In this document: positions 4,534-23,061 of the stretch, piece by piece
How positions within the stretch are numbered: position 1 is the first letter of the stretch
Layout of the letters: every line of letters starts with the position of its first letter
Virus record (IMG/VR): IMGVR_UViG_3300025401_000648
Strand: one strand, 5' to 3'
DNA from: a virus
Taxonomy: Duplodnaviria; Caudoviricetes
Length of the DNA: 64,000 nucleotides
Position numbers and translations under genes: made by a program
Notes under the pieces: generated by a model
The model's database searches: none
What the model was told of the DNA's origin: nothing
What the model saw: the letters and a program-made list of their open reading frames with translations, nothing else

Positions 4534-5991
4534 TCAATGATAGTTAATGGTTGTGCGGTTAAAAAATAACCCGTATACTAGTATTATTACACCAAAAGCA
4601 AGCAGACACAAACTAATTGGATGATGCAGGAGATCTTGAAATTTATACAGTGCCAAAAATTGCCCTGTGGTTAGTTCCAATCTATGACTAAGAGTAAAGC
4701 CTATGATAAAACTGATCCTACTGATTTTGAAATATTTAAAACATAGTCCCACTGCGGTCATTATGGACAATATGGCATAATCCTCCCAGCCGCCTGTATA
4801 GTCGACGCAGGACCAAACAATCAAGGCAATCAAAGGGGCCGCCCAATACTTAAAGGGCACACGGGTTATTGCTGTGGCATATTTTATGAACGCTATACTG
4901 ATAAAAAATGTTAGAACCAAACTTAGCATGAAACCAAAACTCAAGGCATCAAAAAATTTGTGATTTGACAGCAGTGTTTGGCTTCCTAGATCCAATCCCA
5001 CATAGGCCAGTAGGCTCATAACCACTGCTTCAAAAGGAGCCGCAGGTACACCAAACAATACCGTGGGCACATAGGCAGTGGCCTTTTGAGCCAGTGTGGC
5101 ACCCTCAGGACCAATTACACCTTTGACATTGCCTGATCCAAAAGGCATGGTTTCATTTTTGTTTGTGGCCACAGTTTGTCCATAGCTTAACCAATCCACA
5201 ATAGCCCCGCCTATACCAGGCAGTATACCAATTACCCCACCTATGATTCCACCTCTGACACTGATCCATCGGTTCGCCCACCAATCCCCAAATCCTTGTC
5301 GTATTTGTAGCCAATTATCTTGAGATGACTGTAGGTATGTGGTTTTAATTCTAACAGCGTTTATGATTTCAGGCAGTGCCATCAACCCTGCCATGACTGG
5401 AGCAAATTGTATACCATCGGCTAGATAAAACCAGCCACCAGTAAATCGTTCAGCGTTAGTCACAGGATCAGTACCAATCGATCCAGCAAATATACCCAAT
5501 ACCAGTCCCAGTATACCTCTTGCCCAATACTGACTGCTTAAGAAACAGATGCTGGTAACAGCCAAGATTAAAAATGCCCACTGTTCAGGTATACCAAAAC
5601 TCAACACCACATTGGCATAGTAGGGCAATAGTAAAATAGTTAACGTTCCCCATACTACGCCCTGACTCACTGAACTAAACACACTGGCACTCATGGCTCT
5701 GGCAGCTTCACCGCGTTGAGCCATGGGATATCCATCCACCATGGTGGCAGCACTACCCCCGCCTCCTGGTATGTTCATGACCACACTGGCAAACAGATCG
5801 CCCACACTGGCTGATACAACCACGGCAGTGGTAAACACAATAAGACTGTAGGGGTCGCCTCGGAAATAGGATATAAAACTATAGATAGTCAGCAAGGCTG
5901 TGCCGGCACCTGCCACAGGAATAATGCCAAACACAAATCCATATAGAGTGCCCAATAACAGCCAAGGTGTATATTGAATTACAAAGTCCAT
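4534..5991 (-). CDS. tctA: Tripartite tricarboxylate transporter large permease, TctA family
   Basis: 485-aa multi-TM protein; G.VFGIIPVAG, NIPG...SAAT.VDGYPMA.RGEA, GVIGILPGIGG, G...GVIGPE. Confidence 0.85.
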   Translation of the reverse strand: MDFVIQYTPWLLLGTLYGFVFGIIPVAGAGTALLTIYSFISYFRGDPYSLIVFTTAVVVSASVGDLFASVVMNIPGGGGSAATMVDGYPMAQRGEAARAMSASVFSSVSQGVVWGTLTILLLPYYANVVLSFGIPEQWAFLILAVTSICFLSSQYWARGILGLVLGIFAGSIGTDPVTNAERFTGGWFYLADGIQFAPVMAGLMALPEIINAVRIKTTYLQSSQDNWLQIRQGFGDWWANRWISVRGGIIGGVIGILPGIGGAIVDWLSYGQTVATNKNETMPFGSGNVKGVIGPEGATLAQKATAYVPTVLFGVPAAPFEAVVMSLLAYVGLDLGSQTLLSNHKFFDALSFGFMLSLVLTFFISIAFIKYATAITRVPFKYWAAPLIALIVWSCVDYTGGWEDYAILSIMTAVGLCFKYFKISRISFIIGFTLSHRLELTTGQFLALYKFQDLLHHPISLCLLAFGVIILVYGLFFNRTTINYH

Positions 5992-19641: not shown

Positions 19642-19716
19642 TGGCGCCGTGGATGGGACTCGAACCCACCTGATACTGATAGACAATCAGTTGCCCTCCC
19701 CGAGGACTACCACGGC
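19642..19716 (-). tRNA. tRNA-Asp (GTC) with encoded CCA
   Basis: GCCGTGG/CCACGGC acceptor stem, ACTGA-TTGTCTA-TCAGT anticodon arm, GTGGG-TTCGAGT-CCCAT T arm. Confidence 0.93.
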
Positions 19717-19792
19717 TTGAATTAGATTGGGCGGGCTGAGCGAGCACCTCGTTTAATGTTCAGCCCTCAGGCCAACACCCTGTAACTAGCTA

Positions 19793-19983
19793 GTTAGAAA
19801 AGAACTAAAGGAACTCCGGACTACTTGCTCTATACCGTCTATAGTGCTAGTGCCTTCGTCATTACTGCCTGCCTTATCCGCCGTTGCTCGAGGCCTTCAT
19901 GCCCTGGATACCAGGTACCCGTCGGTACGCTTCCATCTCTCCAGGCGCCTAGCGGTGTAGGTAACCTTTAATGCTTTCCTAAC
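19793..19983 (-). ncRNA. Candidate structured ncRNA, about 190 nt
   Basis: Own promoter 19997-20025, no RBS/ORF; 5' GTTAGGAAAG-C-ATTAAAGG pairs with 3' CCTTTAGT-T-CTTTTCTAAC; several internal hairpins. Confidence 0.7.
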
Positions 19984-20053
19984 TGTCTATGTCTTTATTA
20001 TAGCACCGGTTTAACCATTTGTCAATCCCGGGCTATAATACCCTTTCTTTCTA

Positions 20054-21477: not shown

Positions 21478-21651
21478 TTGTGCTCCTTTTTTAGTGTATG
21501 TGTGTATTATACTGCCAATCCGCCAGCGTGTCAACAAGTTTATTGTAAAGTTTTGTAAACCATGACTGTTGTGAAAATACAACACAAAAAACAGTTGACA
21601 CAGAGCCAGTACTGCGCTATAATACACACTTACACTAAAAGGAGTACTAAA

Positions 21652-21891
21652 ATGGGTCAATACGCTAACACAGTAAACGCATACGCTATGTCCGCCGCTC
21701 GCGCAAAAGTATACACTATGCAAAACACGCTACAGAGCTACGGTCAGACCGCTTATATGCTAAATGTAAGCACAGCCAAGTTCCGTAAGGACATCGAAGC
21801 TAAAAAAGTAAAATTTATTGCCCTATTGGAAAAAGAGCGTGTTGCGCAATTACAACAAGAGCTGGCACGTTTACAAGCAAAAACTGCTTGA
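21652..21891 (+). CDS. Hypothetical early protein
   Basis: Promoter 21595-21623, AAGGAG RBS before MGQYANT. Confidence 0.75.
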   Translation: MGQYANTVNAYAMSAARAKVYTMQNTLQSYGQTAYMLNVSTAKFRKDIEAKKVKFIALLEKERVAQLQQELARLQAKTA

Positions 21892-21943
21892 CATCTCGCC
21901 CCGAAAGGGCGTATAATACACACTTAAACACTAAAGGAGCACT

Positions 21944-22168
21944 ATGTCAAAAGCACTTAACAAACGCATTGCCGACGCCTTCGCTACAATTTACGACCAG
22001 GGCGATAACGGACTAGAGTACATGGACGGCCACACTGCGCTGGACCCGGCTCTAATGGAGCACTTTTACAATGACACAGTAGAGACACTGTCTAAAGCAG
22101 ATCGCACCCGCATGGCCCTAATGTTGGAGACCATTGCCAGCGATATGGACATGGACTTAGAGTGTTAA
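21944..22168 (+). CDS. Hypothetical early protein
   Basis: Promoter 21888-21917, AAGGAG RBS. Confidence 0.75.
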   Translation: MSKALNKRIADAFATIYDQGDNGLEYMDGHTALDPALMEHFYNDTVETLSKADRTRMALMLETIASDMDMDLEC

Positions 22169-22175
22169 AAGTGAT

Positions 22176-22190
22176 GGGGACTAGGTCCCC
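22176..22190. terminator. GC-rich hairpin between convergent transcripts
   Basis: GGGGAC-TAG-GTCCCC; no clear T-tract. Confidence 0.45.
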
Positions 22191-22202
22191 TATACACTAG
22201 TA

Positions 22203-22383
22203 CAGCACGTGAGCAAGTATCTCCATGCTGTCCCGCCTCGCTTGTTCCTGCTGTGATCAAGCTCACCACTAGCCTTAACCTGTTAGAGTTTAGGTCACGA
22301 GTTCGGACTGTGTGCGCCGGATCTATGATCACTAGCTCAATGTGATTTAGCTGACCCGACGGACTCTAACCTCCTGATCAGCA
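22203..22383 (-). ncRNA. Candidate structured ncRNA downstream of tRNA-CAT
   Basis: Nested helices: 22249-22260/22374-22383, GTTAGAGT/ACTCTAAC (22282-22289/22363-22370), 22292-22297/22352-22357, plus hairpin 22203-22230; no RBS-led ORF. Confidence 0.5.
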
Positions 22384-22425
22384 TCACACATCTTTATCCA
22401 CTGGTCCTACGGTTTATCAAACATT

Positions 22426-22503
22426 TGGTGGGCCGTCTTGGAGTCGAACCAAGCACCAATGGATTATGAGTCCACTGCTCTAACCAACATGAGCTAACGG
22501 CCC
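22426..22503 (-). tRNA. tRNA with CAT anticodon, probably Ile2 (lysidine type), encoded CCA
   Basis: GGGCCGT/ACGGCCC acceptor stem, A discriminator, CTCATAA loop, TTCGACT T loop. Ile2 vs Met assignment is an inference from the GGGCC acceptor and G1-C72 pair. Confidence 0.9.
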
Positions 22504-22528
22504 TATATACACTCTATACACTCTATAC

Positions 22529-23061
22529 AGCGGGGTTTTTCTTGCATGCAAGAACTTAGACTACGAGCTCCTGTTGCTGAATCCACTATATACAGTGTGT
22601 ATTAGTATCTTAGTCTATGTACTTATTATACACGGACGCCACGGTGTGAGCAATCAGGAAGTTGTTGACACCGTTGTACACACGCAACACTAGGGTAAAA
22701 TAATGGTAGAAAAATTGTGAAGAAAACACGAGAAATCCCAGTCTAATCCTGGTGTGAAAATGGTGAGAAATGGTGGAGAATCATGGTGTTCTAGCGGGGT
22801 TTTTGGTGTGAAACAGTGCCTAAACTAGGGATTTTTGGCTAAAATTTTTTTGGATGGGTGGAGTCACCGTCGGCTATAGTCAAATGGTCCGTTGAAGATT
22901 CAGTCAAAATCCGTTGAAGATTCACCAGTTCTTCACCAATTCTTCAGTCTGAATCCCGTCACAATCTTCACCAAGTTTCTACCCGTTCTTCAACTGCTTA
23001 CAGCGGGGTTTTCACACTGGATGATGCTGTCCGCGCTGAGTTCGTACAGCGGGGTTTTTAC
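22529..23061. repeat. Non-coding region with 4 x AGCGGGGTTTT and other short repeats
   Basis: Copies at 22529, 22793, 23002, 23049; CCGTTGAAGATTCA x2 near 22890-22925; TATACACTC tandem at 22506-22528. Confidence 0.75.

Follow-up and report, generated by a model that had tools for sequence, protein, structure and literature searches.

Large phages often carry tRNA genes, and structured RNAs keep appearing beside them (T4 rnaC/rnaD, GOLLD, ROOL); the role of these tRNA-linked phage RNAs is a long-standing question. The annotation of phage T4 places tRNA-Arg, rnaD (species 2, 119 nt) and rnaC (species 1, 139 nt) adjacent to one another on one strand, the latter two being small stable RNAs. Both are cut out of the tRNA precursor. 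In E. coli, the sRNA sponge 3′ETS-leuZ originates from the 3′ external transcribed spacer of the glyW-cysT-leuZ tRNA operon; it is about 50 nt long, consists essentially of a seed and a terminator, and acts by base pairing with Hfq. ROOL RNAs measure about 500–600 nt. Both GOLLD and ROOL are phage RNAs that often lie beside tRNA islands, many GOLLD RNAs exceed 800 nt, and one GOLLD example is located downstream of a Met-tRNA (PMC12286853). Theta ribozymes, which are minimal HDV-like ribozymes, also adjoin phage tRNAs; their cleavage sites lie no more than 5 nt to either side of the tRNA end, and CCA is encoded by just 4.5% of the tRNAs that they accompany (PMC10879173).

The locus described here lies in a 64,000-nt stretch of DNA (the window) from an uncultured large freshwater phage. 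On the minus strand, a tRNA gene with the anticodon CAT is followed by a trailer that runs as far as an intrinsic terminator and that is probably the gene for an uncatalogued structured noncoding RNA of a small clade of freshwater phages, transcribed together with tRNA(CAT). Judged by comparison among relatives, the trailer is a conserved noncoding RNA with a predicted fold, and it represents a new family within the known kind of phage tRNA-linked RNAs. A search of Rfam 15 with cmscan, at the gathering threshold and at E ≤ 10, returned nothing over 22168–22425. The only matches in the region are two tRNAs, and elsewhere there are two chance-level matches.

Like T4 rnaD and rnaC, the trailer is noncoding, belongs to a large lytic phage, and resides on the same strand as a phage tRNA, directly 3′ to it. 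Instead of two shorter RNAs there is here a single one of about 245 nt that has a terminator of its own, and it is known from metagenomes alone. Homology to rnaC/rnaD was ruled out by the scores of our covariance model, R1, there being no similarity in sequence or structure: cmsearch of the T4 tRNA region with filters off gave at best 4.7 bits (E 0.24), and the best match overlapping rnaC or rnaD reached 3.1 bits (E 0.8). The resemblance to 3′ETS-leuZ is one of position, between the last tRNA and the intrinsic terminator of the operon, such that tRNA 3′ processing would release the trailer. In contrast to that sponge, the trailer has a 180-nt multi-junction core and no exposed seed. The only complementarity to the common early leaders of the phage spans 7 nt (CUAGUGU with ACACUAG, in six leaders). 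Pairing with these leaders or their ribosome-binding sites was rejected, as a 7-nt match is expected by chance (about 0.3 such matches) and the segment is paired inside the terminator stem.

With GOLLD and ROOL the trailer shares a phage origin, an elaborate predicted fold and linkage to a tRNA, but at about 180–250 nt it is far smaller, and it matches neither Rfam model (gathering threshold, E ≤ 10). Theta ribozymes offer a further parallel as structured RNAs located directly 3′ to a phage tRNA with a possible part in its maturation. Here, however, the fold begins 13–19 nt past an encoded CCA, the spacer is unstructured, the RNA is much larger and comes from fresh water rather than gut, and no HDV-type Rfam family matches at E ≤ 10. 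A riboswitch or attenuator would be expected to control a same-strand gene behind the terminator, whereas convergent genes are found there instead. T-box-like pairing of UGGU with the ACCA end of the tRNA was also dismissed because the motif is not conserved, reading CGGU in the relative L003.

A second folded RNA in the window, at tRNA-Asp (19717–20025), belongs to the same phage and early region, is likewise part of a tRNA transcription unit, and is unmatched in Rfam. Its position is 5′ to the tRNA, whereas the CAT trailer lies 3′. An earlier suggestion that the trailer mirrors this locus did not hold up: the two have no likeness in sequence or structure, and R1 finds no second copy in the window. 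Since R1, run over the window, does not detect the tRNA-Asp leader RNA, the two tRNA-linked RNAs are unrelated and their link is positional only. The occurrence of two unrelated tRNA-linked folded RNAs within 3 kb suggests that tRNA transcription units may be favored for expressing such RNAs.

The tRNA(CAT) transcription unit

The phage encodes a DnaB-type helicase, a GP88-family protein, tail fibers and a TctA transporter. Its early region (12–26 kb) is dense in perfect TTGACA-17-TATAAT promoters with a common leader. Two minus-strand tRNAs are called by ARAGORN and Rfam alike: Asp at 19642–19716 and CAT at 22426–22503. The elements of the unit that contains the second tRNA are as follows.

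22625–22653, minus: probable sigma70-type promoter, read directly from the sequence, with −35 TTGCTC (22653–22648), a 17-nt spacer and −10 TATAAT (22630–22625)
22504–22618, minus: conserved 5′ leader of the tRNA transcript, about 115 nt from a putative transcription start, which includes the last of the AAACCCCGCT copies as well as a small palindromic hairpin (CUUGCAUGCAAG)
22426–22503, minus: CCA-encoding tRNA, anticodon CAT (Met according to ARAGORN; 61.2 bits with the Rfam tRNA model)
22413–22425, minus: single-stranded, A/U-rich spacer that follows CCA, where an endonuclease would probably enter and cut
22168–22199, minus: intrinsic terminator, GGGGAC-CUA-GUCCCC within a 12-bp extended stem, followed by UUUU
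21944–22168, plus: convergent gene of 74 aa, whose stop codon adjoins the terminator

The tRNA is thus as the preliminary description had it, with a CAT anticodon and an encoded CCA. In the light of the TilS determinants, it may be a lysidine-type tRNA-Ile2 that reads AUA rather than a tRNA-Met. The acceptor-stem pairs C4-G69 and C5-G68 are common to this tRNA and T4 tRNA-Ile.

The upstream TTGCTC-17-TATAAT promoter proposed at the outset is present at 22653–22625. Because its −35 element matches TTGACA at only three of six positions, it is not listed by a consensus scan. The −10 region (GTATAATAAGTAC) is invariant in six related loci (the window, L010, L003, L033, L032 and L001). No promoter separates the tRNA from the trailer, and behind the CCA the minus strand runs for 250 nt to the terminator. 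The spacer that follows CCA varies in length, from 13 nt in the window to 19 nt in L003 and L033. The absence of an ORF led by a ribosome-binding site, which had been noted previously, is confirmed in that the sole ORF (55 aa, GTG start) has no counterpart in L003. Also present as first reported are the CAGCA..TGCTG hairpin (22231–22202) and the GGGGAC/GTCCCC hairpin with its T run (22199–22168). Beyond the terminator are two convergent plus-strand genes (21562–22168), and the next minus-strand gene has a consensus promoter of its own at 21534–21506.

Two sets of repeats lie upstream of the tRNA. Four exact copies of AAACCCCGCT, all on the minus strand, occur in the window between 22529 and 23057 and are confined to the 530 nt that separate a 197-aa gene from the tRNA. 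About 25 nt lie between the end of the last copy and the tRNA, and this copy is kept in L003, L010, L032, L033 and L001. This element could be a phage-specific promoter, an operator or an RNA motif. Repeats of the TATAGAGTG type make up 22504–22530, directly ahead of the tRNA, and vary in number and sequence in every relative.

Relatives that carry the trailer

Relatives were reached through two neighboring genes, the 197-aa gene upstream (17 homologous clusters) and the 74-aa convergent gene. In every close relative recovered, that is, in the contigs encoding the closest members of these neighbors, the tRNA and the trailer occupy the same place. Identity of the RNA to that of the window is 100% in L034, 97.7% in L010–L015 and L028, 84% in L003 and 83% in L033. 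The L032 contig contains the tRNA and ends after 40 nt of the trailer. L033 is a natural recombinant in which the 197-aa gene is window-like (98.5% amino acid identity) but the 74-aa gene and the RNA resemble those of L003, with the crossover located between the 197-aa gene and the RNA core. The product of the 74-aa gene belongs to a very widespread freshwater-metagenome family (>213 clusters at 90% identity), mostly found in other gene contexts, and has no Pfam or PHROG match.

Two IMG/VR records found with a pattern for the 3′ half of the tRNA, L001 and L002, carry the same tRNA with a gene behind it and no trailer. Both tRNA and trailer are missing in farther relatives of the 197-aa gene (53–61% identity) and of the 74-aa gene (77–86%). 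Given its absence from L001, L002 and these more distant relatives of the neighbors, the trailer RNA is dispensable for the wider group.

Direct searches point the same way. With blastn, the locus matched INPHARED phages at the tRNA only. Exact trailer patterns, including AACCGTAGGACCAGTGG, gave no match in scans of IMG/VR, in which the sole match to GCGCACACAGTCCGAAC as an exact pattern is a chance occurrence in a giant-virus coding region. A two-block pattern run over metagenome contigs recovered a single genuine locus, identified before by other means, together with a chance match in coding sequence, and a pattern scan of genome contigs gave no match. The covariance model R1 found no further copy in the window, in 18 loci, or in the complete L001 and L002 records of IMG/VR. 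Within the reach of these methods and databases, the RNA appears confined to a small clade from lake metagenomes.

Comparative fold of the trailer RNA

The preliminary description drew the trailer as one long nested rod, extending from TGCTGATCA (22383–22375) to TGATCACAGCA (22260–22250). Each of its complementary segments is indeed present, and all 29 rod pairs are standard in the window. Comparison with relatives nevertheless refutes the rod, which is a very improbable fold for this RNA. The best structure that contains it has an energy of −64.1 kcal/mol, as against a minimum free energy (MFE) of −80.2 kcal/mol, so that the rod costs 16 kcal/mol. Only 16/29 homologous pairs are standard in L003 and L033, and half of those 16 belong to one conserved match, GUUAGAGU/ACUCUAAC. 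The outer helix keeps two of nine pairs in L003, and the two L010 substitutions that fall there both break it, yet the same substitutions improve or spare hairpins H1 and H3 of the structure presented below.

When the alleles are aligned, long invariant blocks are interrupted by short stretches that differ almost wholly between the window and L003 types, and these variable stretches pair locally with each other. The predicted fold, which the comparison supports, has a stem (P1) that joins two three-way-junction domains and is followed by hairpin H4 and the terminator. Its elements, all on the minus strand, are listed here.

22233–22412, minus: structured core of 180 nt, closed by the 4-bp P1 (22412–22409 with 22236–22233; RNAalifold)
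22305–22407, minus: domain 1, in which P2 (22407–22404 with 22308–22305, and 22401–22399 with 22312–22310; RNAalifold) encloses H1 and H2a
22339–22392, minus: H1, with outer, inner and apical stems and the 7-nt loop UUAGAGU (22369–22363)
22316–22336, minus: H2a, GAUC-AUA-GAUC, an extended bulged stem that is invariant and has its variable bases in bulges
22237–22301, minus: domain 2, in which P3 (22301–22297 with 22241–22237; RNAalifold) encloses H2b and H3
22277–22296, minus: H2b, GACCU/AGGUU, with a loop containing ACUCUAA (22289–22283); register uncertain
22250–22269, minus: H3, from RNAalifold and two-sided changes
22202–22231, minus: H4, the CAGCA..TGCTG hairpin of 11 bp and a single bulge, found for every allele in both the MFE and the centroid structure
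22283–22369, minus: tentative 7-bp contact between the H1 loop (22369–22363) and the H2b loop (22289–22283), GTTAGAGT/ACTCTAAC

The strongest changes are found in H1, which holds in L003 despite a different sequence. Between the window and L003 types, seven to eight of its pairs, located in the outer and inner stems and including one apical pair, have changed on both sides. L010 contributes U.G to C-G and G-C to G.U within H1 and converts a U.U of the outer stem to U.G. In H3, two adjacent pairs differ on both sides between L033 and L003 (U-A to C-G, G-C to A-U), accompanied by a change of U.G to C-G. The remaining stems vary less: P3 shows two one-sided changes with pairing kept (U-A to U.G and U.G to C-G), and P1 a single one-sided change in L033, U.G to U-A, which also retains pairing. 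No pair varies on both sides in P1, P2, H2a or H2b. P2 yields no covariation signal because its pairs are invariant. For H2b, RNAalifold favors another register, and there are no double-sided changes to decide between the two. All three allele differences in H4 fall in its loop.

Run blind on a MAFFT alignment, RNAalifold recovered P1, P2, H1, H2a, P3 and H3, among which eight pairs have substitutions in both partners. The comparative structure, itself derived partly from the sequences used to score it, pairs 96.9% of cells in that alignment, as opposed to 28–43% when partners are slid by 1–3 columns; pairs changed on both sides number eight in the structure and 0–2 in these slid controls. The covariation score was reached by none of 500 shuffles. 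After a one-base realignment in H1, 10 pairs are compensatory, nine have one-sided changes, 36 are invariant and three include a non-pair. These counts come from four distinct alleles in two deep lineages, all from lake metagenomes, and so represent few independent events per compensatory change. The fold is specific to the minus strand owing to its 27 G.U cells, with 219/226 cells forming standard pairs there as compared with 192 on the opposite strand. Relatives carry the RNA, and their substitutions keep its pairing.

Energetically, the common fold is within 3–5 kcal/mol of the MFE in three alleles. In L010 it is 10 kcal/mol away when H1 is placed in its first register, a gap that a one-base shift removes. 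In both allele types the 3′ arm of H1 could instead pair with the start of H2a to give an alternative hairpin. A switch based on it was rejected and is kept solely as a caveat, as this hairpin is 4–10 kcal/mol less stable than the model and is largely explained by palindromes. The folding energy of the trailer as a whole is not unusual when compared with shuffled sequences (MFE z −1.47, with 16/200 shuffles folding as well), nor is that of the 180-nt core (z −0.38) or the opposite strand (z −0.54). An ordinary folding energy had been proposed as grounds for rejecting the candidate, but this is a weak test, because H1 alone, folded from the window, has an MFE of −20.6 kcal/mol and a z of −3.68, matched by none of 200 shuffles, and because the comparative evidence is independent of energy.

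Rates of change differ sharply along the RNA. When the window is compared with L003, the two flanking genes agree at 70% of their third codon positions. The RNA contains three scaffold blocks, of 21, 42 and 28 columns, which are 100%, 88% and 93% identical, or 84/91 together (92%, p = 8e-6), a comparison that supports purifying selection on the scaffold. The two arms of H1, at 9/35 identical positions (26%, p = 7e-7), have diverged faster than the synonymous rate and yet remain paired. Their divergence might reflect old alleles spread by recombination or diversifying selection on the helix.

The apical loop of H1 may also contact the loop of H2b, clamping the two domains together. This tentative interaction is the least secure part of the model. 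All seven of its pairs can form in all four alleles, with one-sided changes of A-U to G.U and U-A to U.G, and the predicted duplex energy is −5.4 to −6.3 kcal/mol. No pair of the contact changes on both sides, and the H2b register preferred by RNAalifold would compete with it. The two partners are what is left of the rod, since GUUAGAGU/ACUCUAAC is its only conserved part, the first sequence being the H1 apical loop and the second residing in the H2b loop. What survives of the initial proposal is therefore that a structured, conserved, noncoding RNA trails the tRNA; its rod architecture does not, and the helices retained are solely GTTAGAGT/ACTCTAAC, as a probable loop-loop contact, and the two 3′ hairpins.

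Possible roles of the trailer RNA

From sequence features, we infer that the trailer is cotranscribed with the tRNA, released by tRNA processing, stable, and active in trans. A transcript begun at the promoter (22653–22625) would comprise the leader of about 115 nt, the tRNA, the 13-nt spacer, the 180-nt core, H4, and the terminator near 22168. Maturation of the tRNA, by RNase P at its 5′ end and an endonuclease in the A/U-rich spacer, would free a trailer of about 245 nt, which its compact fold and terminator hairpin would protect. Once free, the RNA could work in trans during early infection, with that of a protein-binding scaffold or decoy as its most likely role. The arrangement would parallel that of T4 rnaD and rnaC directly behind tRNA-Arg.

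A role in cis on the tRNA transcript seems unlikely. The trailer would in that case protect the 3′ end, gate maturation or enforce termination, the last preventing an antisense run into the convergent plus-strand genes (21562–22168). Such a role would fit the constant fusion of the trailer to the CAT tRNA in one transcription unit and the strong terminator that adjoins a convergent gene. In addition, the terminator stem and the 3′ strand of P1 both contain GGGAC, which makes alternative pairing with GUCCC conceivable; the alleles show no variation that bears on it. A 180-nt two-domain fold with junction blocks conserved at 92% goes far beyond what 3′ protection or termination would need, and the same tRNA does without the trailer in L001 and L002. 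Improbable, too, is a catalytic or ligand-sensing core, be it a self-cleaving ribozyme that frees the tRNA 3′ end or a sensor that controls read-through of the terminator. The compact multi-junction fold, probable loop-loop clamp and strongly conserved junctions would suit such a core, and small ribozymes beside phage tRNAs have already been described (PMC10879173). Yet no ribozyme or riboswitch family matches at E ≤ 10, there is no same-strand gene behind the terminator for a sensor to control, and the fold starts 13–19 nt past the CCA after a variable spacer, whereas cleavage by theta ribozymes falls no farther than 5 nt from the end of the tRNA (PMC10879173).

It is quite improbable that the trailer is spacer DNA without a function at the RNA level, a remnant of cassette shuffling whose palindromes form hairpins and in which palindrome-templated mutation or recombination has mimicked covariation. 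The locus is a recombination hot spot, as exemplified by the recombinant L033, its variable arms hold palindromes (TGATCA in the window, GCATGC in L003), the folding energy of the whole stretch is ordinary, and the RNA is represented by only two deep lineages, some relatives being without it. These palindromes are not conserved, though, L010 having destroyed two TGATCA sites, and the changes that keep pairing in H3, P3 and P1 lie outside them. A spacer would also not be expected to contain G.U pairs that make its fold strand-specific, or blocks of 21, 42 and 28 columns at 100%, 88% and 93% identity next to genes whose third codon positions are 70% identical.

A bolder reading is rather unlikely: the trailer might represent a new class of compact phage RNA in which two three-way-junction domains are clamped together, H1 sets strain specificity, and alleles are exchanged by recombination, or alternatively a new ribozyme or sensor core. 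If true, it would fit diversifying selection on the recognition of a partner, for example a host defense nuclease that is decoyed beside the phage tRNAs or, alternatively, a phage protein that tells self from co-infecting relatives. To the tRNA-linked phage RNAs the trailer adds a small example, of about 180–250 nt, with a clear transcription unit. Given its narrow distribution, its present value is as a well-defined candidate rather than as a mechanism. Its assets include a testable secondary structure, natural allelic variants, a recombinant phage, and a hypervariable helix whose arms nevertheless stay paired.

Elsewhere in the window, a gene for a full-length subunit of a TctA-family tricarboxylate transporter is located at 4534–5991 on the minus strand (Pfam E = 6e-81); it is unusual among the auxiliary genes of phages.
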